From Phage PEA2-3, in sequence record MW508890.1: DNA of 52,770 bases; one strand, given 5' to 3'. Below, one piece after another: positions 367 to 51,390 of the stretch; position 1 is the first letter of the stretch, and each line of letters starts with the position of its first letter. A program made the translations under genes and the position numbers. The notes below the pieces were generated by a model. That model searched no databases, was not told the DNA's origin, and saw only the letters and a program-made list of their open reading frames with translations.

Positions 367-368
367 AC

Positions 369-3210: not shown

Positions 3211-3363
3211 TGAGTCTCTCCTCTTGTTTGTGGGGCTCTCATTATATACACGTTATTAAACCAGAGTAAATAGACTTTTATGTATTTTATACATTTATAT
3301 CTATTTACTTTCCCCTCCTTTATATACATAATAGACTTACATTCTGCTAAGGAGATACAACCA
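3211..3363. promoter_or_regulatory. Divergent intergenic control region
   Basis: AT-rich spacer between minus-strand 2878..3210 and plus-strand 3364..3801; motif ttatataca occurs twice (about 3243 and 3320). Confidence 0.4.
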
Positions 3364-3801
3364 ATGTTTCACACACTCAAGACCTTTCAGGGCGTCAGTC
3401 CTAATACCGACGAACAAGTAATTGAAGAGCACTTTGTTACCTTTCGTACCAGCGACATCGTTGACATTAGCGTAATTGTACACAATGATACTGCCGAAAT
3501 TGTATATCTTACTTTGCGCGGTACCCAGGACGAAGACGGTGCACCGCCTTGCATGACCTTCAGACGTGAATGGCACGCTGAAGCTGTTGAATCACTGGTT
3601 GCATTGCGTGATGCGCTTCATGTTACACCGACTTACTTCACTGACAATGACGGTAGCTTGTTCCCGTACAGCAACGTCATGTATGTCAATATCAAAACAC
3701 GAACCATGCATCTGGTAAATGGTGTTGCTATTGCACTCACCAAAAACGAGTTTGACCGGTTTTATGACGAGTATCGTAACTGGATGGACTTATATAAATA
3801 G
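3364..3801 (+). CDS. Hypothetical protein
   Basis: Start moved inward from track ORF 3280..3801 to the ATG preceded by RBS aaggagatacaacc. Confidence 0.5.
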   Translation: MFHTLKTFQGVSPNTDEQVIEEHFVTFRTSDIVDISVIVHNDTAEIVYLTLRGTQDEDGAPPCMTFRREWHAEAVESLVALRDALHVTPTYFTDNDGSLFPYSNVMYVNIKTRTMHLVNGVAIALTKNEFDRFYDEYRNWMDLYK

Positions 3802-3811
3802 GAGTAATTAA

Positions 3812-4180
3812 GTGAGTAACCAACCGTCTATGTCGTTAGTGTACCAGGCACCAGCTAAGACTGGTGAGTTTGCAGGTACCATCCACGTAATTCATGCGGA
3901 AGAAATCATCAGCATTGCATTTGTGGAGAAAACAAAGAAAGAAAAAGCTTTACGCGTCACCACTAAAAGTGGTATAATAGACATAACGGATATTGTTGCG
4001 GGCCAGGCACTACGTACAATGTTCAATAACTATTGTCTACTAATTGGTGCAACTATGCACATGCAACCTGAGGAAACAACTGATGGCATTGAACCCACAA
4101 GAACTGGAATCGATGGATACGGAACAGCTGTACGACAAGCTGGCGAATCTGAACCGCTGGATGGCACAAGCGAAAGCTGA
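3812..4180 (+). CDS. Hypothetical protein
   Basis: 122-aa ORF with GTG start 5 nt after aggag; 3' end overlaps the next ORF out of frame. Confidence 0.4.
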   Translation: MSNQPSMSLVYQAPAKTGEFAGTIHVIHAEEIISIAFVEKTKKEKALRVTTKSGIIDITDIVAGQALRTMFNNYCLLIGATMHMQPEETTDGIEPTRTGIDGYGTAVRQAGESEPLDGTSES

Positions 4181-4532
4181 CCAGGAGACGTTGCGCCGGA
4201 CCATTAAAGCACGTCTTGAACGTGACATGATTATCAATCGTGGTAAAGAAGGTACACAAACGGTTGAGTTCAGCATGCATGGCGTACCTGGTAAACTCAA
4301 GGTTGAGCAGAAGGTTAACCGCTCACTAGACCAGAAGCTTGTGCCTGACGTAATGAAGAAGTTACCGAAGACTGTTGTTGCCAAGCTGTTTAAAACCAAG
4401 TATGAAATGTCAGTTACTGCATACCGTAACCTGACACCAGAACAGCTGGCTATCGTCGACCCTGTTGTGAAGACCTCGCCTGGTATTCCGACTGTAACAT
4501 TCACCCCGGCAGCTACGGAAGAAGCCGAGTAA
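4083..4532 (+). CDS. Hypothetical protein
   Basis: Start set at ATG 4083 preceded by gaggaaac; charged protein, no motif recognised. Confidence 0.45.
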   Translation: MALNPQELESMDTEQLYDKLANLNRWMAQAKADQETLRRTIKARLERDMIINRGKEGTQTVEFSMHGVPGKLKVEQKVNRSLDQKLVPDVMKKLPKTVVAKLFKTKYEMSVTAYRNLTPEQLAIVDPVVKTSPGIPTVTFTPAATEEAE

Positions 4533-4537
4533 TTAAA

Positions 4538-4566
4538 CGGGGCTTAGCACAAGCCCCTTGACTTTT
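4538..4566 (+). terminator. Intrinsic terminator
   Basis: Hairpin ggggctt-agcac-aagcccc followed by ttgactttt. Confidence 0.55.
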
Positions 4567-4576
4567 GGAGACTTAC

Positions 4577-4867
4577 ATGGCATCAGATAACAGCAAGAAG
4601 TATAATCTTGAAGACCGTTACAAGCATCATCTTGGCATTCTCAAGTCCGTCATGCGTACTGCAGGAATGGATGAGATGGAACCTCTTTGTAATATCCTTC
4701 CTCGCGTACGTCATATGGTACAGGATAATGTTGTGCTGAATAAAGCTATTGAGCAGGCACAGGCTGAGGGTGTTGCATTTATTCGTGTAACCCACAAAAA
4801 GGATGGCACCAGCCTGGAAGTGGTTAACAGCCGTAACGTATTAATCAAGGCCGGTGATCAATCGTGA
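4577..4867 (+). CDS. Hypothetical protein
   Basis: ATG 4577 follows ggag by about 6 nt; 96 aa. Confidence 0.45.
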   Translation: MASDNSKKYNLEDRYKHHLGILKSVMRTAGMDEMEPLCNILPRVRHMVQDNVVLNKAIEQAQAEGVAFIRVTHKKDGTSLEVVNSRNVLIKAGDQS

Positions 4868-4957
4868 AGATAGCTCATCTGATTCTTGATGCCATACTCG
4901 TTGGGTGTGTGGTATACGGTTTGTACCTGGCAACACAAATAACGGGGTATATCATCC

Positions 4958-5248
4958 ATGGACAATAAGCAGATGCGTGTTATGTTTATGGGCAATCCTG
5001 GTCCGCGTGACAAATGGCTATTTGACAAGCTCAAAGAAAGCCTGATAGGCAAAGAGCTGGTTATTGACTTTACTCCTGTTGAGAAAAGAGCGGCTGAAGT
5101 CTTTCGCAATATCAACCATGACTTAATCGTGATTGACGAGATTGTGGATAAGCCAACAAAGAAAGAAGTCGGTACATATGCGGCCATGTTTGGCGTGCCA
5201 AAGAAAACATATACTCCGCTACACAAACGTAAAGGTAAACGTAAATGA
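4958..5248 (+). CDS. Hypothetical protein
   Basis: 96-aa ORF, lysine-rich C-terminus. Confidence 0.4.
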   Translation: MDNKQMRVMFMGNPGPRDKWLFDKLKESLIGKELVIDFTPVEKRAAEVFRNINHDLIVIDEIVDKPTKKEVGTYAAMFGVPKKTYTPLHKRKGKRK

Positions 5249-5535
5249 GTACTCTAGATTCTCGTGCTAAACTGGCTAAGATTTGTAATGTGACCGTGAA
5301 GGAGTCAACCCTTCCGGAGCTCAAGGGATGTCTCCTTTGTGGGTCAGGCTTCCAGCTTATTTGGGACCCGTACAAGAACAAGGACCAGGCTATGGATGTG
5401 CTTCTGCATTCAGGTATTAGCCTGCAGGTCAACAGTAATGAAGTTGTCGCCAATGGCGAAGTGTTCTTGTTTGAAGACTACGACCGTGCTCATTATTGTT
5501 TGTGTGATGCTATTTGCACTTCTGCCTTAAAATAA
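5245..5535 (+). CDS. Hypothetical protein
   Basis: ATGA start/stop overlap with the upstream ORF (translational coupling). Confidence 0.4.
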   Translation: MSTLDSRAKLAKICNVTVKESTLPELKGCLLCGSGFQLIWDPYKNKDQAMDVLLHSGISLQVNSNEVVANGEVFLFEDYDRAHYCLCDAICTSALK

Positions 5536-5649
5536 ATGTGTACGTCACCACTCACTAATGATATAATGTCTTTAACGGTTAAGCAATAAAGCACATGCGC
5601 AGGGAATAACTCTGGCATACAATTAAACTGGTATACAAGGAAACAAGAA

Positions 5650-6555
5650 ATGACTACAGTATTTGACCGCAGCGGTAAAGCACACGAAGCTCTGGGTTTT
5701 GTTATCTGTGTTGACGAGGGAAACACTTCCCTGTTGACGCAGGGCAAAGTGTATGCCAACCTAGGTTCTTTCGGCGGGGCTTACGATAACTTATGGGTAA
5801 TCGACGACCGTGGTCTGAAGCAGAACTTCAGCGTTGACCGTTTCGCTAAGTACGAATCTGAAAAACACAACTGGGGTATCGCTCGCCGTTCTTACGCTAA
5901 CCTGAAAGAAGGTAAGCTGTATCGTGTTGAGAAGAATCGCCCTGGTGTTCGTTCACTGGATGGCACTAATCAGATTGCATGCGTGGATGAGACCGGTAAC
6001 TGGCTGACATACAATGAAGACGTCTTCCGTCTGTGCCGTCCGTCTCATTCCGAACAGTACATGGTTGCTAAGCTCAAAGCGGCTGCACCTGTCAAGAACA
6101 CTGCAATCAACTTCAAAGTTGAGGAAGAAGTTATTGCAGACGACAAACTGAAGTTTGTTGGTGTTAAGTTTGAACCGAATGGTCGTGTGTACACTTACAA
6201 GTACATCGGCAAAGTAAGTGTAGGGGACAAAGCGGTTGTTGACGTTCGCAATGTTAACTATCCGGAGCTGAACGGTACCAAGCTCGTTGATGTTGTGTCT
6301 GTAAGCGCCGCCAATACTTCTGGCTACAACACTGCAACTCTCAAATGGCTGGTTGATGTGCCTGACTTTAACAAGTATCAGCGTCGTCAGCAGGTTGAAG
6401 ACTTACTGCGTGAAGCGTCAGCACGCCTCGACCTGGAAGTTGAGAAAGAACTGGAACGTCGTCGTCAGACAGTTGTTGCTGACCTGGCAGCATCTAACCC
6501 GGACATCAAAGCACTGCTCGATGGTATCGCTGCATTGAAAGCAGAACTGCTGTAA
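5650..6555 (+). CDS. Hypothetical protein with C-terminal coiled-coil-like region
   Basis: 301 aa, RBS aagga upstream; C-terminal charged heptad-like stretch (EDLLREASARLDLEVEKELERRRQ). Confidence 0.5.
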   Translation: MTTVFDRSGKAHEALGFVICVDEGNTSLLTQGKVYANLGSFGGAYDNLWVIDDRGLKQNFSVDRFAKYESEKHNWGIARRSYANLKEGKLYRVEKNRPGVRSLDGTNQIACVDETGNWLTYNEDVFRLCRPSHSEQYMVAKLKAAAPVKNTAINFKVEEEVIADDKLKFVGVKFEPNGRVYTYKYIGKVSVGDKAVVDVRNVNYPELNGTKLVDVVSVSAANTSGYNTATLKWLVDVPDFNKYQRRQQVEDLLREASARLDLEVEKELERRRQTVVADLAASNPDIKALLDGIAALKAELL

Positions 6556-6603
6556 TAACTTAGGCGGGTGCAAGCCCGCCAGTCTTCCTCCCTGGAGAGT
6601 ACT

Positions 6604-7050
6604 ATGGACCTGTTCAAAACTAAATACATTGTTTATAAAGCACCAACTACTGAAGAGCATAACGTTGTGTATGCGGTTGATGTGATAAATGTCAATGCTT
6701 TCTTCTCTTGTCGTTTCTTTATCAGTACAAAGGCACGTGCTGACCTCAAAACAGAACTTACTGAGCGTGTTGTACACGGCATTGTTAATAGTGCTGAGTT
6801 CCGTAACTTCTGGAGCAAGAAAGGCGTTGAGCTTCCTCCTTACGAGGACGGTAACCTTACTGTTGTACGTGTTGACAAAGCACACAAACAGGTATATAGG
6901 TTCAACGTGTACAGCGACCACCTGAAGGGTGTCACCATCCCTTTGTGGGTAGAAGCATACAACGAAGAGCATGCAGGAGTATTACTCGATGGTGTCATAG
7001 CCAACCTCGGTTTGTCACGGCTATCGTGTCAAGCTGTTAGTGTAAAATAG
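6604..7050 (+). CDS. Hypothetical protein
   Basis: Start moved to ATG 6604 after ggagag; track ORF began at 6568 inside a hairpin. Confidence 0.45.
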   Translation: MDLFKTKYIVYKAPTTEEHNVVYAVDVINVNAFFSCRFFISTKARADLKTELTERVVHGIVNSAEFRNFWSKKGVELPPYEDGNLTVVRVDKAHKQVYRFNVYSDHLKGVTIPLWVEAYNEEHAGVLLDGVIANLGLSRLSCQAVSVK

Positions 7051-7055
7051 TAGTG

Positions 7056-7084
7056 TACTTACCCCATGTAAGTGGTGTATAATA
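7056..7084 (+). promoter_or_regulatory. Promoter-like element (AAGTGG-N-TATAAT family, copy 1)
   Basis: cttacc ... aagtggtgtataat immediately upstream of gene 7111. Confidence 0.45.
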
Positions 7085-7110
7085 CCTCTATACACATGAG
7101 GAGAGAGAAT

Positions 7111-7341
7111 ATGAGCATCAATACTCTAGCACAATTTCGTTCCACACGTAAGCTTGTTGCAAAAGATGACTGCGACTTGTGGACATACGGTATTCATCAT
7201 GACTGGCACATCGTCGAGTCATTCGATGAACCCACAAAATACTCCGTCTGTGGCGAGGAGTTTGACACCCTGGAAGAAGCCGAAGAAGCTCTTTATCGTA
7301 TGTACTGCGATGAAGAATCACTTTACGAGGACTATCATTAA
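7111..7341 (+). CDS. Hypothetical protein
   Basis: ATG 7111 after gaggagagagaat. Confidence 0.45.
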   Translation: MSINTLAQFRSTRKLVAKDDCDLWTYGIHHDWHIVESFDEPTKYSVCGEEFDTLEEAEEALYRMYCDEESLYEDYH

Positions 7342-8225
7342 TGGTTCAGATTGTATCTACTAAACAAGCCGTAGAAAATAAGCGACCTAAGGTCGCTATT
7401 TACGGCGCATCAGGTGTTGGTAAAACCAGCCTGGCTAAGACCTTGCCTCACGATAAGGTTCTTGTCATTAACGCTGAAGGCGGTTTGATGTCGATCGCAG
7501 ATGCTGACATCGACTCTACGCCAATCAATACGTTCAACGACATTTTGGCGCTGTACAAATGGCTTACCGAAAGTAAGGATGCGCAGAAGTATGAGCATCT
7601 GATTTTCGACTCGCTGTCAGATGTGGCTGAAGTTTGCCTGGACTATGAGAAGTCGCAAGTCAACGACAAACGACAGGCTTATGGTAATACCAACGACAAG
7701 ATGATGTATATCATGCGTCAGTTCCGTGACTTGCCTTTCAGCGTTGCATACCTGTGCAAGCTCGAGAAGAATAAGGACGAGGTTACTGGTGCAATGTTGT
7801 ATTCACCTCTCATGCCTGGCCAGCAGCTACCTAAACAACTGCCGTATCTTATGGATGCGGTACTTGCTTTACGTATGACTGCACCTGACGCCAATGGTAA
7901 TAGCGAGCGCTACATCCAGACACAACCCGACTACCAATGGGAAGCTAAGTGCCGTAACGCACCAGGCCGTGAACTGGATGCACGTGAGCCTGCTGACCTG
8001 GGCTGGATTTATGACAAGCTGCAAGGTTATCATCCTTACCAGCTGTGGTACTATCATCCGGAGTCAGATAGCTACCTGCTTCTGACAGGTCGAGCTGCAG
8101 AACAGATGCAGAACGACGACCCGAACGTGCAGCTCACTAAAATCGGTTCGGACGAATCGAAAGAGAAGCACCAAGCCTGGATGGCGAAGAAAGCCGCTCA
8201 AGCTGAGAAAGGAACCAGCGAATAA
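7341..8225 (+). CDS. Sak4-like RecA-fold ATPase (AAA_24-like)
   Basis: Walker A in KVAIYGASGVGKTSLAKTL followed by VLVINAEGG, matching the short RecA-core ATPase pattern as I recall it. Confidence 0.6.
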   Translation: MVQIVSTKQAVENKRPKVAIYGASGVGKTSLAKTLPHDKVLVINAEGGLMSIADADIDSTPINTFNDILALYKWLTESKDAQKYEHLIFDSLSDVAEVCLDYEKSQVNDKRQAYGNTNDKMMYIMRQFRDLPFSVAYLCKLEKNKDEVTGAMLYSPLMPGQQLPKQLPYLMDAVLALRMTAPDANGNSERYIQTQPDYQWEAKCRNAPGRELDAREPADLGWIYDKLQGYHPYQLWYYHPESDSYLLLTGRAAEQMQNDDPNVQLTKIGSDESKEKHQAWMAKKAAQAEKGTSE

Positions 8226-8228
8226 AAG

Positions 8229-8261
8229 TGTTTACGCCATGATAAAAAGTGGCGTATAATA
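8229..8261 (+). promoter_or_regulatory. Promoter-like element (AAGTGG-N-TATAAT family, copy 2)
   Basis: tttacgcc ... aaaagtggcgtataat upstream of gene 8333. Confidence 0.45.
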
Positions 8262-8332
8262 AGCATCACGGCCGAACGCTGCCGGTAAAGCGTTAAACGA
8301 AATTAAACTAAACTTAAACAGGATACCAAACA

Positions 8333-8878
8333 ATGGCTGAATTAAACTTCAACAGCTCTACCGTCGAACCGCAACAGTCTTTTGACCCGATCCCGAAAGG
8401 CTGGTACAACTTCATGATTGAAGAGGTTGAGCTGAAGCCGACTAAAGCAGGCACTGGTTCTTATCTGTCCCTGCGTCTGAAAGTGCAGGAAGGTGAGTTC
8501 GCTAACCGTGTTGTATTTGACATGATTACCTACTCCAACCCTAATGCGCAAGCTGTTGAAATCGGTCATCGCAAACTGTCTGCGTTGTGTCGTGCGCTGG
8601 GTATTGTTGAACTGACTTCTACCGACTTACTGGAAAACCGTATTGTAGCTGGTAAAGTTGGTGTTCGTATCGACAAGACCGGTGAGTACGACCCACAAAA
8701 CGATATTCGCGAATACAAAGCGTCAACTGAAGCAACTACTGCAGTAGGTGGTCATTCTCAAGCAACTGCATCGACGACGAAGAAAGTAGGTGCAGGTGCG
8801 AGTACTTCAACGAAGGCGAGTGCTACTGCAACGGCACCTGGTGCTGACGACGGTGCAGCAGCTCCTTGGGAAGAATAA
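8333..8878 (+). CDS. Putative ssDNA-binding protein
   Basis: 181 aa directly after the Sak4-like gene; Ala/Thr/Ser-rich linker ending in an acidic/aromatic tip (DDGAAAPWEE) reminiscent of SSB C-terminal tails; weak inference. Confidence 0.35.
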   Translation: MAELNFNSSTVEPQQSFDPIPKGWYNFMIEEVELKPTKAGTGSYLSLRLKVQEGEFANRVVFDMITYSNPNAQAVEIGHRKLSALCRALGIVELTSTDLLENRIVAGKVGVRIDKTGEYDPQNDIREYKASTEATTAVGGHSQATASTTKKVGAGASTSTKASATATAPGADDGAAAPWEE

Positions 8879-8900
8879 TCCCTGCCGAGTAAATATTCAA

Positions 8901-8924
8901 TAGGGGCTTCGGCCCCTATTTTCG
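8901..8924 (+). terminator. Intrinsic-terminator-like hairpin with UUCG loop
   Basis: aggggc-ttcg-gcccct followed by attttcg. Confidence 0.5.
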
Positions 8925-8939
8925 TATACGGAGACTACC

Positions 8940-9425
8940 ATGCAAAAGAAGAAGATGGACAAGTGGGACAGGCGGTTTATGCGCATAGCTTGTGAAGTTG
9001 CGAGCTGGTCGAAGGACCCGAAACGTCAAGTCGGTAGCGTTCTTGTGGACCAGAACAAGCGTATTATTTCCACTGGATATAATGGTCTACCTACGCAGTT
9101 AGACTCTATAAGAATAGTGCCTAATAGCCTTAAGAACGCTCTAACTATTCATAGCGAGATAAACACCTTAGCTAATATAAGGAGTGAGTTAGACACTCCT
9201 TCATTAGGCCCGGTTACCATCTACATAACATACCCGCCGTGCGAACATTGTGCAGACATGCTGATAGCCAACCTTAACCTGGTACGTGTAGTTGCATTGG
9301 CACATACAGCTTCTCAATCCAAATGGAAGGATAGCATGGCAAATGCCGTCGCCCACTTGTGGGCTCATAATATTGTGTACGATGAATTCAGCGTTGAGGA
9401 GTTTAACAATGCCAAGTCCGTTTGA
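8940..9425 (+). CDS. dCMP (deoxycytidylate) deaminase
   Basis: Zinc-binding deaminase signature HSEINTL ... PCEHCA; about 160 aa. Confidence 0.75.
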   Translation: MQKKKMDKWDRRFMRIACEVASWSKDPKRQVGSVLVDQNKRIISTGYNGLPTQLDSIRIVPNSLKNALTIHSEINTLANIRSELDTPSLGPVTIYITYPPCEHCADMLIANLNLVRVVALAHTASQSKWKDSMANAVAHLWAHNIVYDEFSVEEFNNAKSV

Positions 9426-10287
9426 CGACCTGCAGAAACGTATTGACATCAAGATAGTCGAAGCCCACGAAAGAGAAGAACGACGCGGGCATCTTGGAGC
9501 ATCTCAGATAGGACACAACTGTTATCGCTATCTTTGGCACGTTCTGCACTGGTCGTTCAAGGAGAAGTTTACCGCTAAGCAACTTCGTCTGTTTGAGCGT
9601 GGTAACCTTGAAGAAAGCAGAATTATAAAATGGCTTCGTTCCGTATGCGACGAAGTGCTGGACGTCAATCCCAAGACAGGTAAGCAATGGCGCATACACG
9701 AATTCAATGGCATCTTCTCTGGGTCTTGTGACTGTGTAATTAAATACAAAGGCGTATGGGCACTTGCTGAATTCAAGACGCATGGCGATAAGTCATTTAA
9801 AGAGTTAGTCAAGCTCAAGTCTGTTAAAGCAAGTAAGCCGGTACATTATGCCCAGATGCAGGTATACATGCGGAAGCTTAAGCTGAATCAAGCTGTGTAC
9901 ATTGCAATCAATAAGAACACTGACGAGATGTATTTTGAAGTGGTCGATATTGACTTACTGGAAAGCGACATACAACTGAGTAAAGCGGAGGCTGTTGTAT
10001 ATGCGGAATCTGGTTTGGATATGCCGAAGATTTCTGAATCGCCTATTTGGTGGGAGTGCAAACCAGGGATGTGCGAATACCATCACCTGTGCCACAAAGG
10101 GGCAATGCCAGACAGGAACTGCAGAACCTGCCATTACAGTAAACCGCTTCAGGGCAAAGTGTGGTATTGCAACAAGCACCAGAAAGAACTCGAAACAATC
10201 GAAGAGCAATTAGCAGCTTGTGATGATTATCGCCCTGCTGATGTCTTCCCGCAGGATGAGAAGCCCGTTAAACTTTCCTTAAAATAA
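9409..10287 (+). CDS. PD-(D/E)xK nuclease, Cas4/RecB-like
   Basis: Start set at ATG 9409 overlapping the deaminase stop; D...EFK and QMQVY motifs; C-terminal Cys cluster (CKPGMCEYHHLC ... CRTCHY) suggesting an Fe-S or Zn module. Confidence 0.5.
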   Translation: MPSPFDDLQKRIDIKIVEAHEREERRGHLGASQIGHNCYRYLWHVLHWSFKEKFTAKQLRLFERGNLEESRIIKWLRSVCDEVLDVNPKTGKQWRIHEFNGIFSGSCDCVIKYKGVWALAEFKTHGDKSFKELVKLKSVKASKPVHYAQMQVYMRKLKLNQAVYIAINKNTDEMYFEVVDIDLLESDIQLSKAEAVVYAESGLDMPKISESPIWWECKPGMCEYHHLCHKGAMPDRNCRTCHYSKPLQGKVWYCNKHQKELETIEEQLAACDDYRPADVFPQDEKPVKLSLK

Positions 10288-10293
10288 AAGTAT

Positions 10294-10320
10294 ACTTTAC
10301 CACAAGGAAGTGGTATAATA
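10294..10320 (+). promoter_or_regulatory. Promoter-like element (AAGTGG-N-TATAAT family, copy 3)
   Basis: tttaccac aaggaagtggtataat upstream of helicase gene. Confidence 0.45.
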
Positions 10321-10345
10321 TATAAAGTTAATGAGGAGACGTTAA

Positions 10346-12016
10346 ATGGCTTTTGAAGCTCGCTGGTATCAAAAAGAAGCGGTCACAGCCTGGTGGTCGT
10401 ACTTCAATTCTTATAGTGGTAATCCACTTATTGTCATGCCAACAGGTTCAGGTAAATCGCCTGTGCTTGGTATGCTGATGAAGGATATTCTTACCAGCTA
10501 TCCGCGTCAGCGTATTCTTATACTGACTCACGTCAAGGAGCTGGTTGAACAAGACGCCAAAGCGATTGTTCGTCACTGGCCGCAAGCACCAGTATCAATC
10601 TACTCTTCAGGTGCAGGACATAAGGACTTTTCAGGTCGTATCGTTGTAGCATCAGTACAGTCAATCATTAAGAACCTGGAAGAAGCAGGCAAGTTCAATC
10701 TTATATTCATTGACGAGGCGCATCTTGTTCCTGAGAAGTCTGAAACAACATACCGTAAGGTTATTGCTCACTTCAAAGAGCTTAATCCTAAGGTAAAGGT
10801 AACAGGACTCACAGCAACTCCGTATCGCCTGGCAGGTGGTCACTTGCTGGACTGTGGTATATTTACCGACATCTGCTATGACCTTACAACACCTGACGCA
10901 TTCACCCGACTGGTAAATGAAGGCTTCCTGTCGCGCCTGGTCAACAAGAAAGTGTTAACCAAGATTGACACCAGTAATGTTGGTGAAAGGATGGGTGACT
11001 ACATCCCGTCAGAGCTCGAGAAGGTAGCCAACCAACATAGTATAACAGTCGCGGCTATTCGTGAGATGATGCACTACGGTAAAGACAGGAACCACGTTCT
11101 TGTATTCGCCACAAGTGTTGAGCACGCCCACAACATAGCAGACGAATTTAATCTGCGAGGGTGGCAGACTGTAGTTGTGCATGGCGGTCTTACAAAGAAA
11201 GAACGTGAAGCCACACTGGAAGAGTTTACAAGCGGACGAGCACGGGTCTGTGTAAACGTAAACGTACTGACGACAGGATTTGACTATCCTGAGATTGATA
11301 TGCTCGGTATCTTGCGCCCGTCCACGTCTGTTGCTTTGTGGGTGCAGATACTTGGTCGAGGATTACGTACAGCGCCTGGCAAGCATGACTGTCTTGTTAT
11401 GGACTTTACATCTAACACCATTGACCTTGGGCCTATTGACGACCCGGCTGTTCCGCCTCGTCTTGGTAAGAAGAAAAAGAAACGGTCAGAGAAAACACCT
11501 GGCGGTAAAGAGTGCCCTATCTGTCACCAGGTAAGTGGCTATGCAGCCCGTACATGTAAGCATCCGGCTAAAGGAAGTACGCCAGACGAGAATGGTGTAT
11601 ATCCGATGTGCGGACATGAATTTGAGTTTACAGTTAACGGACCTGCCATTGCCTTCACTTCATCAGAAGAAGAGGTAATGACTAACGGTCAGCTTCGTGT
11701 TGTGGATAAAGATGTTACGCTGGTAAACTATTCTTTATTCCAGAAGCAGGGACGACCTGACAGTATAAAGGTTGTGTATTACTCAAACCTGGAAGTGTAT
11801 ACAACATGGGTAAATATAGAGGCCCATGGCAATGCTAAGCAAATGGCAGATGCCTGGTGGCGTAATGCTGCAGGAACAGAACCGCCTGAAACATGCGATG
11901 AGTTTATTCGCCGTAAGGGTGAGCTGGCTATTCCTAAGCGCATCAAGGTATGGATTAAACGACCCTACCCACAAATCATGAACTACGACTGGGGAAACGG
12001 TTATGGCGCTCGATGA
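10346..12016 (+). CDS. Superfamily II DEAH-type helicase
   Basis: Walker A MPTGSGKS, Walker B FIDEAH; C-terminal extension with Cys pairs (CPICH ... C). Confidence 0.8.
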   Translation: MAFEARWYQKEAVTAWWSYFNSYSGNPLIVMPTGSGKSPVLGMLMKDILTSYPRQRILILTHVKELVEQDAKAIVRHWPQAPVSIYSSGAGHKDFSGRIVVASVQSIIKNLEEAGKFNLIFIDEAHLVPEKSETTYRKVIAHFKELNPKVKVTGLTATPYRLAGGHLLDCGIFTDICYDLTTPDAFTRLVNEGFLSRLVNKKVLTKIDTSNVGERMGDYIPSELEKVANQHSITVAAIREMMHYGKDRNHVLVFATSVEHAHNIADEFNLRGWQTVVVHGGLTKKEREATLEEFTSGRARVCVNVNVLTTGFDYPEIDMLGILRPSTSVALWVQILGRGLRTAPGKHDCLVMDFTSNTIDLGPIDDPAVPPRLGKKKKKRSEKTPGGKECPICHQVSGYAARTCKHPAKGSTPDENGVYPMCGHEFEFTVNGPAIAFTSSEEEVMTNGQLRVVDKDVTLVNYSLFQKQGRPDSIKVVYYSNLEVYTTWVNIEAHGNAKQMADAWWRNAAGTEPPETCDEFIRRKGELAIPKRIKVWIKRPYPQIMNYDWGNGYGAR

Positions 12017-12224
12017 CAGAGAACTATTTGAACGGGTAGCAACCCAGGCTAAAGCTTTACCACGGCATGTTCGCCGACAGCTTATTATATACTTGCAGGA
12101 TATGAGCTGTGCAAACTGCCGTAGTTTTCAGGCAGGAGGTTGCCTGTTATCCGGAGGCAAAACACCACCGCCGGCAGTCCTGTCTTCCGGATGTAAACTT
12201 TTTGACTATGATGTGCCTTTCTAG
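12003..12224 (+). CDS. Hypothetical small Cys-containing protein
   Basis: 73-aa ORF overlapping the helicase stop; CANCRSFQAGGC. Confidence 0.35.
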   Translation: MALDDRELFERVATQAKALPRHVRRQLIIYLQDMSCANCRSFQAGGCLLSGGKTPPPAVLSSGCKLFDYDVPF

Positions 12225-12331
12225 GCACTAATGAAAAAAGTTTAAAAAAAGGTGTTTACACACTCTTTTAAATGACGTATATTAACTCACGTAACGAACA
12301 AACATTAAGCCCTGTAGACGAGGAAAAAATT

Positions 12332-12799
12332 ATGAGCGAGAAACTGACTTTTGTAACTGGTAAAGAAGAAGTTAACGGCGTACTGTATCCGGCAGCTGGT
12401 ACTGGCGCACGTTACGTATGGGACCTGGCTGATAAAGCCCATGAAGAAGGCAAGTCCAGCTCTGACGTTATGGACGAAGTTGTTGCCACTACCGAAATGT
12501 CCCGTGGTACTGTTTCTTCCCAGCTGACCTACTGGCGTAAAGCCACTGGTAAGGTTCTGGCTAAGCGTGTTGATACCGCTAAAGCAGAACGCGATGCTGC
12601 TAAAGCCGCTGAAAAACAGCGTAAAGCTGAAGAGCGTGCTCGCATCAAAGCTGAAAAAGCCGAAGCGAAAGCTGCTGAGCAGATTCGCAAAGCTGAAGAG
12701 AAAGCTGAAAAAGCTCGCCAGAAAGCAGAAGCTGCTAAAGCTGAAGCTGCTAAACTGGCTGGCGCGATCGAAGGCGACAACGAAGAAGTTGCTGAATAA
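12332..12799 (+). CDS. Hypothetical protein with Lys/Ala/Glu-rich low-complexity C-terminus
   Basis: Start at ATG 12332 after gaggaaaaaatt; C-terminal about 70 aa of AKAE-type repeats. Confidence 0.5.
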   Translation: MSEKLTFVTGKEEVNGVLYPAAGTGARYVWDLADKAHEEGKSSSDVMDEVVATTEMSRGTVSSQLTYWRKATGKVLAKRVDTAKAERDAAKAAEKQRKAEERARIKAEKAEAKAAEQIRKAEEKAEKARQKAEAAKAEAAKLAGAIEGDNEEVAE

Positions 12800-12815
12800 T
12801 AGCGCTGATCTGAAC

Positions 12816-12840
12816 GCACCTCTACGGAGGTGCATTCAAT
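12816..12840 (+). terminator. Terminator-like hairpin
   Basis: gcacctc-tacg-gaggtgc directly after the stop at 12799; weak downstream T run. Confidence 0.4.
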
Positions 12841-13365
12841 GGACATCCTTACATCTCTCTTCTTATCAACAATCAATTAAGCCTGGTGTGTTGAAACAGT
12901 GAGGGTGTCCAGTGAATGCAGTTCAATTCTGCTCGCTGACCGAGATTTGGTAAAAGCCGTGATGTGTGAGGTTCGATTCCTCCGACGCTGAAAAGGGTAT
13001 TGGCTCGCTACCTTGGCCCCAGGCGCCTGGTGTAGACGGCGGTCACAATTTTAGTTGTGGTGTTTTGGCGTATCTTTTTGACACCCGTCGGGTGCAGGTT
13101 ATCCACAATAACTCAGGTGCTAAGACACCACAACTAAGGTTGTACTTGCTGTGTGCTTTTGCCACTCCATCGGTGTAATAAGTGCAACGCTCTATACTTT
13201 CCGTGGTGAGAGCACACAGCAAGTAACGCATATGTGATTGGCTACTCGATAACACCTCCTTTCGTCTCGTCGCGGGGATTAAAATGGTAAGTCTTTTGGC
13301 CAATCTCATATGCGCTGCCTGGTTGCATAGTTACGATGCCTTGTATCTCCTTACGCCACCCTGCC
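12841..13365 (+). ncRNA. Candidate structured non-coding RNA or cis-acting structured element
   Basis: About 0.5 kb without a convincing ORF, flanked by hairpin terminators; long inverted repeats at 13047-13064/13123-13141 and 13141-13158/13209-13225; 12-bp palindrome ccaggcgcctgg at 13019-13030. Confidence 0.35.
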
Positions 13366-13400
13366 AAAAGGACCAGTTAACGCTGGTCCTTTTTATTTTT
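13366..13400 (+). terminator. Strong intrinsic terminator
   Basis: aaaa-ggaccag-ttaacg-ctggtcc-tttttattttt; A tract upstream and T tract downstream, so possibly bidirectional. Confidence 0.75.
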
Positions 13401-13418
13401 ACCAGAAGCGTAAAAAGT

Positions 13419-13450
13419 GCTTTACCACTAGAGAGTGATGTGGTATAATA
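13419..13450 (+). promoter_or_regulatory. Promoter-like element (AAGTGG-N-TATAAT family, copy 4)
   Basis: tttaccac - 17 nt - tataat with upstream tgg (extended -10-like), ahead of gene 13476. Confidence 0.5.
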
Positions 13451-13475
13451 AGTTATCTTTTAGAGGAGAGATACA

Positions 13476-13874
13476 ATGAACCTACAACGTGTTGCTGAAG
13501 CTTATTACAGGATTTGGATACTTCGGCTAGAGGGCCAAATCGACTACGTGAACACCGTCGGCCGCGAAGATTACTTGCCTGCATCTTCTTTCCAGGAAGT
13601 ATGCAACATTGCTCAAACTCTTGAACATGAATTTGATAAAGTCAAGTTTACACGCGATGTGCAAACAAACTTTATCAAGTTTGAAACAACCATGCGCTGT
13701 AAATTCCCGTTTATCAAGCGCATATCCCGTACCGGCCTTTTCATTGTTCCCTTTCCTGTGGGTAAAGAACGTTGGGACACTTTAGAACAGGCTCGTCATA
13801 TTATCTGGTCTACAGAAATTAAGCGTAAGTTTATCGAAACTGTTTGTAAGGAGTTACGAAATGCGATTCAGTAA
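13476..13874 (+). CDS. Hypothetical protein
   Basis: 132 aa, RBS agaggagagatacaatg. Confidence 0.5.
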   Translation: MNLQRVAEAYYRIWILRLEGQIDYVNTVGREDYLPASSFQEVCNIAQTLEHEFDKVKFTRDVQTNFIKFETTMRCKFPFIKRISRTGLFIVPFPVGKERWDTLEQARHIIWSTEIKRKFIETVCKELRNAIQ

Positions 13875-14454
13875 AATTGCTGCAGGCGTTACCGCTTTTC
13901 ATGAGAAGTTTGACCTCAAGCCTGTTAGTCAAGGCGGTAAACCTGAGTTCAAGCTTCGTTACGACCGTCTTATTGAGGAGATGGAAGAAATTAAACAAGC
14001 TAAGAAGGACGGCGACAAAGCTGGCTTCTTAGATGGTATTGTAGATTTAATTTACATTGCCGCAGGTACGTTATACTTGTATGACCAGACTGCATGGTTC
14101 ACCAACGAATTTGAGTATCCGATTCTGTTAACTACGCCATGCGGATTTATGGACCGCTTCGATGCTGACGGCCTTATTGTATATGTTAAGGATACTGAAG
14201 ACACTCATTGCGACCGTCTGGCCCAGTTAATTATCCACCTGATTACCTGGTGTGCAAACAACAACTGGCCACTTGACGCAGCATGGGATGCGGTACAGGC
14301 TGCTAACATGGCGAAAGAACGCGCTAAGCCTGATGCAAGCAACAGCAAGCATAAGTCTGGTCAGGATATTGTTAAGCCTGAAGGATGGAAAGCACCTGAC
14401 ATCCAGGCCATCATCGACGCACACGTTAACCCGGCTCAAAAGGAACTGTTTTAA
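13861..14454 (+). CDS. MazG-like all-alpha nucleoside triphosphate pyrophosphohydrolase
   Basis: R..LIEEMEEI ... DGIVDLIY and C-terminal AANMAKERAK resemble the MazG/HisE EExxE...D and K...R pattern; RBS taaggag. Confidence 0.55.
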   Translation: MRFSKIAAGVTAFHEKFDLKPVSQGGKPEFKLRYDRLIEEMEEIKQAKKDGDKAGFLDGIVDLIYIAAGTLYLYDQTAWFTNEFEYPILLTTPCGFMDRFDADGLIVYVKDTEDTHCDRLAQLIIHLITWCANNNWPLDAAWDAVQAANMAKERAKPDASNSKHKSGQDIVKPEGWKAPDIQAIIDAHVNPAQKELF

Positions 14455-15338
14455 TGAAAACATACAGCACTGTCGATTCTCTTTACAGCGACATCATTTC
14501 TTTTATCCTGCGTAAAGGTGAGGATGTTGTAGACCGTACAGGTGTTGGTACCCGCCGTTGTTTTGGTACAGCATTTAAGCTGGCTTTCAACGACAACAAA
14601 CTGATGGTGCCGGTGTTTAAGCCTGTTAACATCAAAGCTGTTGCTGCTGAGCTTTACTGCTTTATCAACGGTATTTCAAACGTCGACACGCTAAAAGGCT
14701 TTGGCTGCAACTGGTGGGAAGGTAACCTACAGGACGCAAACAAACGTTGGGGTACGCCAGACAACCGTGACTTAGGTCCTGTGTACGGCGTGCAATGGAT
14801 TAAGCCATTCTATAAGAATGGTGTTCTTACTAACCAGCTTAAAGATGTTATTGAAACGCTGAAGGTTAAGCCTACTGACCGCCGGGCGTACATTACGGCA
14901 TGGAACCCACAAGAGATGGACGCCATGGCCCTTCCGCCTTGTTACCATGGTTTTCAGCTGTTCATTAACAACCGTAATGAATTAGAGTTGATGTTCCACA
15001 TGCGTAGCGCGGATGTTATTCTTGGCCTGCCTCACGATATTCTGTTGCATCAGATGTTGCAGATTACCATTGCTGCTGAGCTGGGTACTGGGGTAGGTGA
15101 TATGACTGTTACGCTGGGTGATTATCACATCTACCAGAATCATATCGATGCGGCAAAGATTTTCCTGCAACGTATCGTAAGCAATTCTGATACTACACTG
15201 GACACTAACTTTGAAGGTCGTCCTGACATTAACGCAATTTATGACGTGTCAGTGTTTGACTTCACTCCTGCCGATGTTACGCCAATGGTTGAGAAGTACA
15301 AACCAATGCCAAACATCAAACTCCAAATGGCCGTATAA
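14454..15338 (+). CDS. Thymidylate synthase (ThyA) family enzyme, probably a dCMP C5-methylase or hydroxymethylase
   Basis: Aligns by eye to ThyA: DRTGVGT, DLGPVYGVQW, AWNP, catalytic Cys in ALPPCYH, MRSADVILGLPHD, GDYHIYQNH; the conserved PFNI Asn position is Asp (PHDI). Confidence 0.7.
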   Translation: MKTYSTVDSLYSDIISFILRKGEDVVDRTGVGTRRCFGTAFKLAFNDNKLMVPVFKPVNIKAVAAELYCFINGISNVDTLKGFGCNWWEGNLQDANKRWGTPDNRDLGPVYGVQWIKPFYKNGVLTNQLKDVIETLKVKPTDRRAYITAWNPQEMDAMALPPCYHGFQLFINNRNELELMFHMRSADVILGLPHDILLHQMLQITIAAELGTGVGDMTVTLGDYHIYQNHIDAAKIFLQRIVSNSDTTLDTNFEGRPDINAIYDVSVFDFTPADVTPMVEKYKPMPNIKLQMAV

Positions 15339-15344
15339 GATGGA

Positions 15345-15366
15345 GCGGGGCTTCGGCCCCGTTATA
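15345..15366 (+). terminator. Terminator-like hairpin with UUCG loop
   Basis: gcggggc-ttcg-gccccg; stem identical to the hairpin at 8901. Confidence 0.45.
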
Positions 15367-15368
15367 CT

Positions 15369-16364
15369 ATGAGCAAGTTTAACTATGACACCAAACAAAT
15401 ACAGACTGCCGTTCAACAAGCTCGTCCCATCAAGTATACTGATAGTGGTCTTATGGGCAAAATATGGATTGCAGACGGAACAATCCATTCATACTACAAG
15501 AACGTATTACTACGAGCGCCATGTAAAGGATTTCCAGACCTGCAAGTGGATGCTGAATCATTTCGTAAGGCCGTTAATGCGGCAAGAACTGAACAGATTA
15601 CTTTTAACATTACAGCCGCTGGAAACCTCACAGTCACAGCAGGTGTACTTAAAACAAGAATGCAAGCGCTTAATGAACCAATACCGCCGCTTGCTACAGT
15701 TAACAACTGGTATTCAGCGCATGGCGAATTGCTCCCGGTATTAACTGCCTTAGCCAAATGGGTACCTAACGAAGCACCGCAGGTATGGGCAACATCTTTA
15801 CTTCTGCGCGATGGTTATGCTTACGCCACCAACGGTAAGTATATGATACGTGAGAAGCTGAACGTAGATTTTGAATTTGAATGTGCCATAGCCAAACCAA
15901 TGCTTGAGGCTCTGGTTAAGCTGAAGATGGAACCCACAAGTGTAGGTTACGCCCGCGGCCAGATGTTCTTCGGCTTTGCGGATGGTGTACAGATGGATGC
16001 CCCGGTACTTGCAGCCAAATGGCCAGACGTATCGAAGTTCTTCAATATGGAAATGGATATGCAGGCCATCACTCCTGAGTTCCTGGAAGTCATGGACCAG
16101 CTTACTGGGTATGACGAAGGTCAAGCCATCCTGGAGATAACAGGCGAGTCAACTGCAAAGGCAGACTTACCAGATAAGATTATTCCAAAGATGTCCGTCG
16201 ACATTAAGTTCCAGTCGACTAAGTTTAGTAAACCGTTCAACTGTGTTATTAGTCAGATGAGTAAACTGGCTAAAGGCATGGAAAGAATAGGACTGGGTAG
16301 TCAGGCGCTCAAAATGGAAAACTCAACTCGTACAGTTGTAATTGCGTATGTTAGAGGGGACTGA
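15369..16364 (+). CDS. Hypothetical protein upstream of DNA polymerase
   Basis: 331 aa; stop overlaps the polymerase start; any processivity role is speculation. Confidence 0.45.
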   Translation: MSKFNYDTKQIQTAVQQARPIKYTDSGLMGKIWIADGTIHSYYKNVLLRAPCKGFPDLQVDAESFRKAVNAARTEQITFNITAAGNLTVTAGVLKTRMQALNEPIPPLATVNNWYSAHGELLPVLTALAKWVPNEAPQVWATSLLLRDGYAYATNGKYMIREKLNVDFEFECAIAKPMLEALVKLKMEPTSVGYARGQMFFGFADGVQMDAPVLAAKWPDVSKFFNMEMDMQAITPEFLEVMDQLTGYDEGQAILEITGESTAKADLPDKIIPKMSVDIKFQSTKFSKPFNCVISQMSKLAKGMERIGLGSQALKMENSTRTVVIAYVRGD

Positions 16365-18331: not shown

Positions 18332-18346
18332 TTAAAGGTCTATAAT

Positions 18347-19124: not shown

Positions 19125-19130
19125 TCAAAT

Positions 19131-19158
19131 AAAGGGGCCATCACTCGGCCCCTTTGTT
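19131..19158. terminator. Bidirectional terminator between convergent blocks
   Basis: aaa-ggggcc-atcactc-ggcccc-tttgtt where the plus and minus blocks converge. Confidence 0.6.
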
Positions 19159-40156: not shown

Positions 40157-40210
40157 AGAAAGCCTCCAGCAAGTTTAGTCCGATTATATACCAGAACTTT
40201 ATACGTGTAA

Positions 40211-40246
40211 ATAAAAAAGACGAGCTCGTCAGCTCGTCTTTTGTTA
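40211..40246. terminator. Palindromic terminator downstream of the major capsid gene
   Basis: aaaaaa-agacgagct-cgtc-agctcgtct-tttgtt; A/T tracts on both sides. Confidence 0.65.
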
Positions 40247-41955: not shown

Positions 41956-42132
41956 AATTTTACAATCCTATATGAGAGGGGCTCAATCCACTCAAGTGGG
42001 CTCCGAACAGGTTTGGGTCAAACCGCGCAGCCAGCCATCCGAAATCCACTGAGCCCTGCAGACTCTCGTGGCCGGCTGTTGCGCGGTTGACATGAAGGAT
42101 TATATAGCCAGGTAAACCGAAAGTAAATAGCT

Positions 42133-45439: not shown

Positions 45440-45616
45440 TGGTATCGTCCTCGTTAATCCGGATAGTCGGGATTATAACGAGTTACGCGAAGTAAGTAAA
45501 CAGAATATAAAAATGGAGTGTCTAGAGAGATGATGAGAAAGTCTACAGTAGAAAGGCGAATAAGTAGCTTATATAGATGAAGAACTAGCTTAGACGCCTT
45601 TATATTTATCCGGTTT

Positions 45617-51190: not shown

Positions 51191-51390
51191 TGCCACTAGT
51201 CAAATTTACGACGGTAGACCTTGCCCATGGATTGCCACCCAAAGCTGAACAAAAATTCTTGACAGTTGAGGAGTGGCATATCTGGTGCCAGTCAGCTCTA
51301 AAATCTGGGGCTAAACGCACTAATGGTGGAAAAGTGTTTACTCGCTTCAATAAAGAGTGTATAATAGTAGTTCAGGTAATGATAGAGTGA
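51190..51390 (+). CDS. Hypothetical small early protein
   Basis: ATG 51190 overlaps the upstream stop by one nucleotide (track ORF starts at the GTG 3 nt earlier). Confidence 0.35.
   Translation: MPLVKFTTVDLAHGLPPKAEQKFLTVEEWHIWCQSALKSGAKRTNGGKVFTRFNKECIIVVQVMIE

Follow-up and report, generated by a model that had tools for sequence, protein, structure and literature searches.

Gene setting and related genomes

The window analysed here is the whole 52,770-nt stretch of Phage PEA2-3 DNA (record MW508890.1), and the elements under study are promoter-like sites of the form GTGG-N0-2-TATAAT that accompany plus-strand genes of this phage. The 6.5-kb region in which the sites were first noted is 98.5% identical to Salmonella phage 8-19, which identifies the window as a Rosemountvirus genome. 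About 40 further Rosemountvirus genomes (approximately 52-53 kb, including BP63, swi3, LPSEYT and UPF_BP2) match the same region at 95-98%. Members of the Loughboroughvirus group (ZCSE2, S144, SE4, PK3 and the Klebsiella phage AEV23) are more distant, with 72-76% DNA identity to the window, a range also found for the KE26/fHy-Eco03 lineage. The helicase is 81% identical in Erwinia phage SOI901 and in two metagenomic contigs.

Plus-strand genes from approximately 3300 to 19100 form a single long replication, recombination and nucleotide-metabolism cluster, which includes genes for an AAA_24/Sak4-like ATPase, a DUF669 SSB-like protein, a dCMP deaminase, a Cas4-like exonuclease, the helicase, a thymidylate synthase and DNA polymerase. 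In the related phage S144, no phage RNA polymerase is encoded and 18 host-type promoters have been predicted (PMC7432712).

GTGG-TATAAT sites and their -35 boxes

Four sites had been picked out by an earlier, sequence-only reading of the window: aagtggtgtataat (7070-7083), aagtggcgtataat (8247-8260), aagtggtataat (10308-10319) and gatgtggtataat (13437-13449). All four are present as described and precede genes, the ATG codons of which (7111, 8333, 10346 and 13476) lie 27, 72, 26 and 26 nt downstream, respectively. A fifth site, GTGGTATAAT (3969-3978), had been overlooked; it is located within the open reading frame (ORF) 3812-4180, and the gene 4083-4532 begins 105 nt downstream. These five are the only matches to GTGG-N0-2-TATAAT in the window, and all are on the plus strand. 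Dinucleotide shuffles yield 0.45 ± 0.66 matches, and none of 100 shuffles reaches five. The recurrence of the motif is real and non-random. Sites are named below after the first base of their -10 box (Table 1).

Upstream TTTAC[CG] boxes at spacings of 12, 17 and 18 nt had been taken as evidence that the -35 element is variably placed. The boxes are literally there, but the one 12 nt from the -10 box of P10314 (10296-10301) is not a conserved -35 element. Relatives lack its equivalent (ATCACC in BP63, GTTATC in S144) and carry T[GA]TAC 16-18 nt 5' of TATAAT, the window counterpart of which is TATACT. Similarly, the box conserved among relatives at P7078 is TGTAC[TA] at 17-18 nt, and the window has TGTACT at 18 nt. 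The spacing appeared variable because the wrong box had been chosen at two sites. With the assignments corrected, all five sites have a T[TGA]TAC-type -35 box 17-18 nt before TATAAT, in standard -35/-10 geometry.

A genome-wide family of predicted sigma-70-type promoters

We listed every TATAAT in the window with its flanks and then scanned for T[TGA]TAC-N16-18-TATAAT, allowing at most one mismatch. The scan returned 24 matches, compared with 3.6 ± 2.0 in simulated sequence (maximum 9), and approximately 17 of the 24 are directly upstream of genes, on both strands. Plus-strand members have -10 boxes at 3327, 3973, 5562, 7078, 8255, 10314, 12278, 13444 and 51360, and feature an A-rich tract ending in (A)AAAGTG immediately 5' of the -35 box. 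Minus-strand members, found before structural genes (45477, 42104, 40188, 34730, 31864 and 3246), mostly read TTTACT-17-TATAAT. About half of the -35 boxes in the family are TGTAC instead of TTTAC. A generic sigma-70 scan of positions 1-20000 was uninformative (33 matches, 32.3 expected), so the family stands out only when the phage's own -35 box, T[TG]TAC, is used.

At all five GTGG sites, -35- and -10-like hexamers 17-18 bp apart stand 5' of a gene, 26-105 nt before its start codon. We compared the promoters with those of 13 related genomes or contigs, representing at least six lineages; the -35 box, the spacing, the -10 box and the positions of the sites are kept throughout. In the GenBank record of BP63, four orthologous sites (those of 8255, 10314, 12278 and 13444) carry promoter annotations with the wording "similar to TTGACA(N15-18)TATAAT", and the records of S144 and AEV23 likewise annotate orthologous promoters. 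The sites were therefore already known in silico as host-type promoters. Taken as sequences, they appear to be sigma-70-type promoters that would be used by unmodified host RNA polymerase.

GTGG is replaced in relatives

The GTGG segment does not share this conservation. P7078 orthologs have GTGGTG in the window, GTGGGG in S144, SE4 and the related sequence L006, CAGGGG in KE26, AAGGGG in fHy-Eco03, CAGGGT in SOI901 and AAGGGA in L009. At P10314, GTGG is found in the window lineage, GTGA in S144, SE4, KE26, fHy-Eco03 and L009, GCGCGT in SOI901 and GCGTGA in L011. At P13444, only the window, BP63 and yarpen have GTGG; other relatives have GTAG or ATAG, even L006 at 91% protein identity. The P3973 orthologs of S144 and KE26 retain TGG-TATAAT and have lost GTGG. 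Only P8255 has GTGGCG or GTGGTG in all orthologs. The sequence-only reading had regarded GTGG-TATAAT, rather than a -35/-10 pair, as the conserved element; the comparison reverses this, as T[TG]TAC at 17-18 bp is kept in every relative examined and GTGG is replaced. Judged from these orthologs, GTGG is not a conserved recognition core.

Part of the motif is explained by an extended -10 element. TGnTATAAT is present at 3973, 10314 and 13444, so the proposal of extended -10 host promoters is supported at these sites; it is not supported at the two sites with two nucleotides between GTGG and TATAAT, where the TG is out of register (GTG-TATAAT at 7078, with a shifted TG, and GCG-TATAAT at 8255). 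Among orthologs, TGn is kept at 3973 and mostly kept at 10314, and is not kept at the other sites.

A stronger version of this proposal is that GTGG-TATAAT is itself the element recognised: sigma-70 region 3, or a variant holoenzyme, would contact it as a '-16 region' or enlarged extended -10, and the -35 box would be dispensable. The 11-fold enrichment of the motif, the TG at -15/-14 (TGgTATAAT) in three of the five sites and the retention of TGg or TGa in P3973 orthologs and in most P10314 orthologs speak for it. We nevertheless consider it improbable: at 7078 and 8255 the TG is displaced by 2 bp from the required register, orthologs show GGGG, GGGT, GGGA, GCGCGT or GTAG while T[TG]TAC at 17-18 bp is always kept, and the 12-nt spacing was a misassignment. 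Moreover, the bases 5' of TATAAT covary with the bases beside the -35 box, which is not expected of a protein-DNA contact.

The suggestion that a phage-modified polymerase reads GTGG found no support, and no phage RNA polymerase is reported for the group. DksA/TraR-type factors bind the secondary channel of RNA polymerase and read no DNA motif. The sole polymerase-binding candidate found is of this type, a 74-aa C4 zinc-finger protein encoded at 18622-18846 on the plus strand (Pfam PF01258, E = 3.5e-10), and this candidate secondary-channel factor might alter the balance between host and phage promoter use. A DksA/TraR-type protein was also noted in S144 (PMC7432712).

Stem-loops embedded in the promoter spacers

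In the window, each GTGG pairs with a complementary CCA[CT]-type segment just 3' of the -35 box, giving a 5-9 bp stem-loop inside the spacer. The 5' arm begins at the TAC of the -35 box (typically TACCAC or TACGCCAT), and the 3' arm is the GTGG segment running into the first bases of TATAAT. The complementarity is kept in relatives at three of the five sites (7078, 8255 and 10314). As an explanation of the shared GTGG, the 3' arm of a stem-loop embedded in the spacer is preferable to a promoter core.

The stem-loops were evaluated against shuffles in which only the spacer was randomised and both hexamers were held. The five GTGG promoters are exactly those with significant perfect inverted repeats in the spacer (6-7 bp, p = 0.001-0.02 each). 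Best-stem lengths sum to 43 for the plus-strand promoters, against 29.1 ± 2.3 in shuffles, and to 27 for eight minus-strand promoters, against 26.0. RNA folding energies of the plus-strand set sum to -41.3 kcal/mol, against -16.4 ± 4.8 kcal/mol (z = -5.2); for the minus-strand set, z is -1.0. None of 400 spacer shuffles is as stable as the P8255 stem. P7078 also contains an alternative perfect inverted repeat, ACTTAC (7057-7062) and GTAAGT (7068-7073), separated by cccat (6 bp, p = 0.02).

Stems differ among relatives in a compensatory manner. At P10314, the arms read CCAC/GTGG, TCAC/GTGA, CGCGC/GCGCG or ACGC/GCGT around a conserved A[AT]GGAA loop. Base pairing is preserved in 92.6% of alignment cells, both partners have changed in three of the six pairs, and a single pair is found in the forms C-G, U-A, G-C and A-U. 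The covariation score is 0.444, compared with 0.127 in shuffles; none of 500 shuffles reaches the observed score, and controls in which the register was slid collapse. At P8255, pairing extends to 100% of cells, with a GC<->AU double change in L011 and SOI901 and three single changes that keep pairing only via G.U. Scans of IMG/VR and metagenomes with a helicase profile added only six loci, which leaves 7-9 distinct sequences per promoter as the basis of these statistics. At P7078, indels and register shifts in the alignment make a column-wise pair count unreliable, and each sequence was therefore folded separately: S144 and SE4 give -13.6 and -13.2 kcal/mol (9 bp, GUAA loop), KE26 gives -10.3 kcal/mol (TACCCC/GGGGTA) and SOI901 -5.4 kcal/mol (ATAACC/GGTTAT). 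The promoter and the TGg of P3973 are kept in S144 and KE26, although the containing ORF is only approximately 35% identical in protein; the S144 ortholog has a different stem, ATACCA-ctaa-TGGTAT.

Palindromic repeats overlapping core promoter elements could be operators, through which a dimeric DNA-binding protein of the phage or host, or a modified polymerase, would switch a class of genes on or off. The repeats are restricted to one gene class and one strand, and the phage encodes, besides the DksA/TraR-type protein, many uncharacterised early proteins. The arms, however, differ between promoters of one genome (TACGCCA, TACCAC, ACCACT and ACTTAC), the gap varies from 3 to 11 nt, and DksA/TraR-type factors, as is generally known, contact the polymerase and not DNA. 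Both arms change together in orthologs (CCAC/GTGG, TCAC/GTGA, CGCGC/GCGCG, ACGC/GCGT), which points to base pairing rather than base-specific recognition by a protein. An operator is accordingly very unlikely. Two sequence-specific sites were also tried and rejected. AAAGTG occurs 5' of the -35 box and again 5' of the -10 box, but the copies are 18-23 bp apart and the second is not conserved in orthologs; the first copy fits the A-rich, UP-like tract. CAC-N6-GTG is replaced by CGC-N6-GCG at the same place in SOI901 and L011.

A functionless origin, in which the shared GTGG and the inverted repeats arose by chance or were inherited from duplicated promoter copies, is disfavoured and seems very unlikely on the present data. 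Some features do come cheaply: the anchoring TAC...GTA pairs follow from T[TG]TAC and from G+TATAAT, the stems are short, the P13444 repeat results from a single A-to-G change in the window lineage, and the consensus shared by plus-strand promoters fits common descent or conversion. Yet shuffles that keep the hexamers give z values of about -5 to +6 for the plus-strand set and nothing for the minus-strand set, and inheritance leaves the compensatory double changes across lineages unexplained.

Resemblance to promoter-early stem-loops and other known systems

The closest known elements are the PeSLs ("promoter-early stem-loops") described by Arbiol et al. (2010) in the T4-type phages RB49 and phi1 (PMC2839356). 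PeSLs comprise the stop codon of the upstream gene in an AT-rich tract, sigma-70-like boxes, a stem-loop located mostly between -35 and -10 and containing G-T pairs, and a downstream Shine-Dalgarno sequence and start codon. One PeSL stem-loop terminated transcription in vivo, reducing lacZ expression as much as rrnB T1 does, and one cassette drove approximately 13,000 Miller units (PMC2839356). Comeau et al. (2014) extended PeSLs to the phage pairs T4/PST (TTTACW-N17-TAYWAT, stem AGNA-loop-TCNT) and KVP40/nt-1 (PMC4122927).

The window elements have the same layout, from the upstream stop codon in an AT-rich tract to the Shine-Dalgarno sequence and ATG, and G-T pairs are found in the stems. 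Stop codons at 7048-7050, 8223-8225 and 10285-10287 are embedded in aaaatag, gaataaaag and aaaataaaag directly 5' of the -35 boxes. All five spacer stem-loops are significant against spacer shuffles, three of them being backed by conservation or covariation, and eight plus-strand elements align to the consensus AAAAAAAnTGTnTACnTCACCACTnAnAAGTGGTGTATAAT. The -35 box is TTTAC-like, as in the T4/PST pair. Stem-loops are also seen at other positions in both systems, the window examples being over the -10 box (34725..34753) and upstream of the -35 box (40183..40211). Stem sequences are specific to each phage: CCA[CT]-loop-GTGG in the window, and GN-loop-CN, A3-4G3-loop-C3T3-4 or AGNA-loop-TCNT in T4-type PeSLs. 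The two systems differ in other respects. The window phage is a Rosemountvirus of approximately 53 kb and not T4-type, and its stems are shorter and less GC-rich. Its cassettes are flanked by conserved genes for replication and recombination, whereas T4-type PeSLs preferentially occupy hyperplastic regions rich in ORFans. No report of PeSLs outside T4-type phages was found in the searchable literature, in which a search for promoter-terminator stem-loops in other phages returned only the PeSL papers.

The promoters themselves resemble T4 early promoters and other strong phage sigma-70 promoters with UP elements, sharing a (G)TTTAC-type -35 box, a 17-bp spacer, TATAAT and an A-rich upstream tract. 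In contrast to T4, neither ADP-ribosylation nor a Mot/Asi-type takeover system is evident in the window genome. The proximal UP-element subsite was reportedly defined by Estrem et al. in 1999 as AAAAAARNR; the A-rich ATAAAAGTG (8222-8230), which abuts the -35 box of P8255 and holds the upstream stop codon TAA, presumably fits this subsite, as does the A-rich tract ending in (A)AAAGTG of the plus-strand members in general. With E. coli extended -10 promoters, P3973, P10314 and P13444 share the TG at -15/-14, which P7078 and P8255 lack and several orthologs have lost (GTAG, GCGCGT). Since all sites retain a -35 box at canonical spacing, they are not -35-independent. Promoters of the phage N4 virion RNA polymerase contain a small DNA hairpin (5-7 bp stem), are read by a phage-encoded enzyme and have no -35 or -10 box. 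The small hairpin within the promoter is a point of likeness to the present elements, which differ in having a full sigma-70 consensus and no known phage RNA polymerase.

RNA or DNA as the acting form

Both arms are located upstream of the predicted transcription start, so a sense-RNA hairpin would form only in read-through transcripts that come from the upstream gene. In all five lineages folded, the sense strand gives the more stable P8255 hairpin (-10.1 to -13.6 kcal/mol, versus -0.2 to -9.2 kcal/mol in antisense). By hand count, approximately six independent non-Watson-Crick cells are of the G.U type on the sense strand, compared with one of the A.C type (the terminal pair of P10314 in BP63 and L006). 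The strand evidence favours sense RNA and is suggestive, not decisive. An antisense terminator, in which a T-run complementary to the A-rich tract would come after the hairpin, was considered and rejected: 5 nt separate the stem from the T-run, no minus-strand genes are present there, and P8255 is less stable in antisense.

The structure might instead act in DNA, as a cruciform or single-strand hairpin tying promoter strength to supercoiling or replication, or as a recombination site between cassettes, as in PeSL mini-circles. For PeSL stem-loops, both formation in single-stranded DNA and use as crossover points have been demonstrated (PMC2839356). In the window, the anchoring of both arms upstream of the start, on the -35 TAC and the -10 GTA, ties the repeat geometrically to the promoter, and the P10314 stem has about the same stability on either strand. 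In ZCSE2, PK3 and AEV23, an inserted 49-aa ORF separates the helicase cassette from the helicase start codon (4811-4960 in the AEV23 locus L013; also in L007 and L012; window equivalent approximately 10320-10346); S144, although placed in the same species, lacks it. This insertion is the only hint of gene shuffling at the cassettes; it is not flanked by two cassettes, and in ZCSE2 no duplicated cassette borders it. Arms of 5-8 bp are generally regarded as short for cruciform extrusion. Moreover, the G.U-type mismatches tolerated on the sense strand (P8255 and P7078 orthologs) become A.C on the opposite strand. On balance, action in DNA seems unlikely, if less so than an operator.

Proposed attenuate-and-restart model

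Given the promoter consensus, the promoter family, the inverted repeats and their covariation, all of which are directly observed, we think it likely that the sites are composite cassettes in which a promoter for host RNA polymerase is combined with a PeSL-type stem-loop. Each site contains an A-rich, UP-like tract holding the upstream stop codon, a -35 box T[TG]TAC, a spacer of 17-18 bp and a consensus TATAAT. Polymerase that enters the cassette from the preceding gene of the long plus-strand operon would copy the stem-loop into RNA; the resulting hairpin, with the weak A/U hybrid of the -10 region after it, would attenuate or pause transcription, or stabilise the 3' end of the incoming transcript. 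The overlapping promoter would then re-initiate transcription for the next gene. The net effect would be a series of tandem promoters insulated from each other within a long operon.

The genomic context agrees with this model. For the hairpins supported by relatives (7078, 8255 and 10314), the distance from the upstream stop codon is 7-11 nt, and the upstream genes lack a canonical terminator. P13444, which is preceded by a canonical terminator at 13366-13393, has a non-conserved hairpin, and the first promoter of the cluster (3327), with no same-strand transcription upstream, has none. In SOI901, the hairpin equivalent to that of P8255 is followed by AAUUUUUU, a U6 run. Stop-codon and terminator context, the hairpin-free 3327 promoter and the SOI901 U-run are therefore the reasons for which attenuation and restart, the model put forward for PeSLs, are favoured.

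Several observations weigh against the model. With 5-9 bp and -5 to -13.6 kcal/mol, the stems are short. Intrinsic terminators resemble them in having an RNA hairpin followed by a weak A/U RNA:DNA hybrid, but the window stems are followed by UAAUA... rather than by a U-tract, and none of the five hairpins was called by a standard terminator scan. Canonical terminators do occur elsewhere in the operon, at 13366-13393 (called by the scan) and near 8905-8930 (GGGGCttcgGCCCC followed by U residues, read from the sequence). The cassettes are found among conserved replication genes, not in the ORFan-rich hyperplastic regions that harbour classic PeSLs. The evidence on strand is thin and leaves room for a role in DNA; for instance, the all-Watson-Crick stem of P10314 is slightly more stable in antisense. 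At individual sites, the P7078 hairpin of the window is weak (-5.3 kcal/mol, p = 0.24 by folding energy) and L009 has no convincing counterpart, and the hairpin and GTGG of P13444 are confined to the window lineage, relatives having GTAG or ATAG and folds of -3.0 kcal/mol or weaker. The P13444 hairpin originated by one A-to-G change, which also created the TGn. Finally, the searchable literature on Rosemountvirus and Loughboroughvirus holds in silico predictions only, and no mapping of transcription starts or 3' ends.

A more far-reaching version of the model treats the spacer hairpin as a coupling device, the same approximately 30 bp ending or pausing the incoming transcript and restarting transcription. 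With the hairpin anchored on the -35 TAC and the first -10 bases, promoter output would depend on upstream read-through, single-strandedness or supercoiling, and the cassettes could be portable recombination modules outside T4-type phages. We regard this version as speculative and probably incorrect.

Other family members and neighbouring features

The coordinates of the five composite elements and of further members of the promoter family are reported in Table 1. The right arm of P5562, degenerate in the window, reads TAGTGC in BP63, and weak hairpins are found at this promoter in S144 (tAGTGA) and L006. On the minus strand at 34716-34740, a GC-rich 8-bp stem, GCGCCAGC/GCTGGCGC (-14.7 kcal/mol), encloses the -10 box in its 9-nt loop, an arrangement unlike that of the spacer hairpins. 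In addition to the hairpin upstream of 40183..40211, a terminator-like hairpin is found directly upstream of a -35 box near 20471.

Table 1. Predicted composite promoter/stem-loop elements and other members of the promoter family in the window.
Feature	Coordinates	Strand	Description
P3973	3949..3978	+	-35 TTTACG 3949-3954, 18-nt spacer, -10 TATAAT 3973-3978, TGg extended -10
P3973 stem-loop	3959-3964 / 3968-3973	+	ACCACT, loop AAA, AGTGGT; 6-bp stem, p = 0.011; -6.3 kcal/mol, p = 0.04
P7078	7054..7083	+	-35 TGTACT 7054-7059, 18-nt spacer, -10 7078-7083
P7078 hairpin	7060-7079	+	TAC.CCAT / GTAA loop / GTGG.GTA (RNA: TAC.CCAU-guaa-GUGG.GUA)
P8255	8231..8260	+	-35 TTTACG 8231-8236, 18-nt spacer, -10 8255-8260; promoter annotation in BP63 and AEV23; precedes DUF669 SSB-like gene
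P8255 hairpin	8233-8240 / 8249-8256	+	TACGCCAT, loop 8241-8248, GTGGCGTA (RNA: TACGCCAU-gauaaaaa-GUGGCGUA); 7-bp perfect stem, p = 0.001; -11.8 kcal/mol (orthologs -10.1 to -13.6)
P10314	10291..10319	+	-35 TATACT 10291-10296 (TGTAC[GCT] in relatives), 17-nt spacer, -10 10314-10319, TGg extended -10; precedes helicase gene; promoter annotation in BP63, S144 and AEV23
P10314 hairpin	10298-10303 / 10310-10315	+	TACCAC, loop AAGGAA 10304-10309, GTGGTA; p = 0.02; -7.5 kcal/mol, p = 0.03
P13444	13421..13449	+	-35 TTTACC 13421-13426, 17-nt spacer, -10 13444-13449, TGg extended -10
P13444 inverted repeat	13423-13428 / 13440-13445	+	TACCAC / GTGGTA, 11-nt loop; p = 0.02; -6.9 kcal/mol, p = 0.02
Family member	3304..3332	+	TTTACT-17-CATAAT; no spacer hairpin (best stem 2 bp); first plus-strand promoter, divergent region beside primase operon
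Family member	5539..5567	+	TGTACG-17-TATAAT; left-arm consensus TCACCACT kept, right arm degenerate (TAATGA)
Family member	12255..12283	+	TTTACA-17-TATATT; no spacer hairpin; before gene 12332-12799 and structured noncoding region; promoter annotation in BP63
Family member	51337..51365	+	AAAAGTG-TTTACT-17-TATAAT; weak spacer repeat only (ACTC/GAGT)
Family member	45472..45500	-	TTTACT-17-TATAAT; structural-gene side; no GTGG, no spacer hairpin
Family member	42099..42127	-	TTTACT-17-TATAAT
Family member	40183..40211	-	TTTACA-17-TATAAT; 12-bp terminator-like hairpin (-17.2 kcal/mol) immediately upstream
Family member	34725..34753	-	TTTACT-17-TATAAT; -10 inside hairpin loop
Family member	31859..31887	-	TTTACT-17-TATAAT; with G.U allowed, 8-bp spacer hairpin TACUUGGU/ACUGAGUA, -5.3 to -6.1 kcal/mol, p = 0.04
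Family member	3241..3270	-	TTTACT-18-TATAAT; before 110-aa gene and primase operon

The DUF669 SSB-like gene (8333-8878) has a second hairpin in its 5' untranslated region, downstream of P8255, at 8275-8294 on the plus strand (AACGCT-gccggtaa-AGCGTT, -6.5 kcal/mol). It is kept in all relatives, with a compensatory AACGCA...TGCGTT in KE26, fHy-Eco03 and SOI901, and could be a translational operator or a stability element for the SSB-like gene.

A gene-free region of approximately 600 nt (12800-13400, plus strand) separates the K/A-rich gene 12332-12799 from the terminator at 13366-13393. Its folding energy is -241.9 kcal/mol, compared with -172.9 ± 5.2 kcal/mol in shuffles (z = -13.2), and every lineage folded shows a preference of 20-50 kcal/mol for the sense strand. 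Four hairpins of 22-25 bp are 83-87% complementary as DNA; in the one checked by hand, all mismatches are G.U-compatible on the plus strand. The region is conserved in all relatives, and 8 of 25 pairs in its 5' domain show compensatory changes across seven lineages. In SOI901 and L011, the same slot is occupied by tRNA-Pro(UGG) and tRNA-Gln(UUG), to which parts of the window region align. Neither Rfam nor ARAGORN recognised anything in it, and the whole window gave no match in Rfam at gathering thresholds and none in ARAGORN. Annotators of BP63 and S144 placed tiny ORFs here. The region may represent a tRNA cluster that has decayed or been remodelled, or else a new structured noncoding RNA.

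The adjacent gene 12332-12799 (plus strand) encodes a 155-aa protein, the C-terminal half of which is rich in lysine, alanine and glutamate and which has no Pfam match. Its DNA is approximately 71% identical over 174 nt to 'transcriptional activator' genes of Vibrio phages, such as vB_VpS_CA8. Near the start of the window, upstream of the end of the primase operon, a very AT-rich low-complexity tract (100-170, plus strand) contains (TAA)n-like repeats (taatataattaataatatataataataataataataataaaataaatat); an origin-like region or the end of the genome may be located there.

Implications

What looked like a new promoter motif resolves into two ordinary parts, a host sigma-70 promoter and an embedded stem-loop. 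If the cassettes are indeed of the PeSL type, as seems likely, this composite design is not confined to T4-type phages, and its occurrence in Rosemountvirus and Loughboroughvirus is backed by covariation. For annotation, promoters of the group can be sought with the consensus (A-rich)-T[TG]TAC-N17/18-TATAAT, with the caution that motif finders will return the arms of such stems as "promoter motifs". Members of the group serve as biocontrol phages against Salmonella and E. coli, and their cassettes would provide a small, testable system for the way in which a phage may insulate tandem promoters within a long operon.

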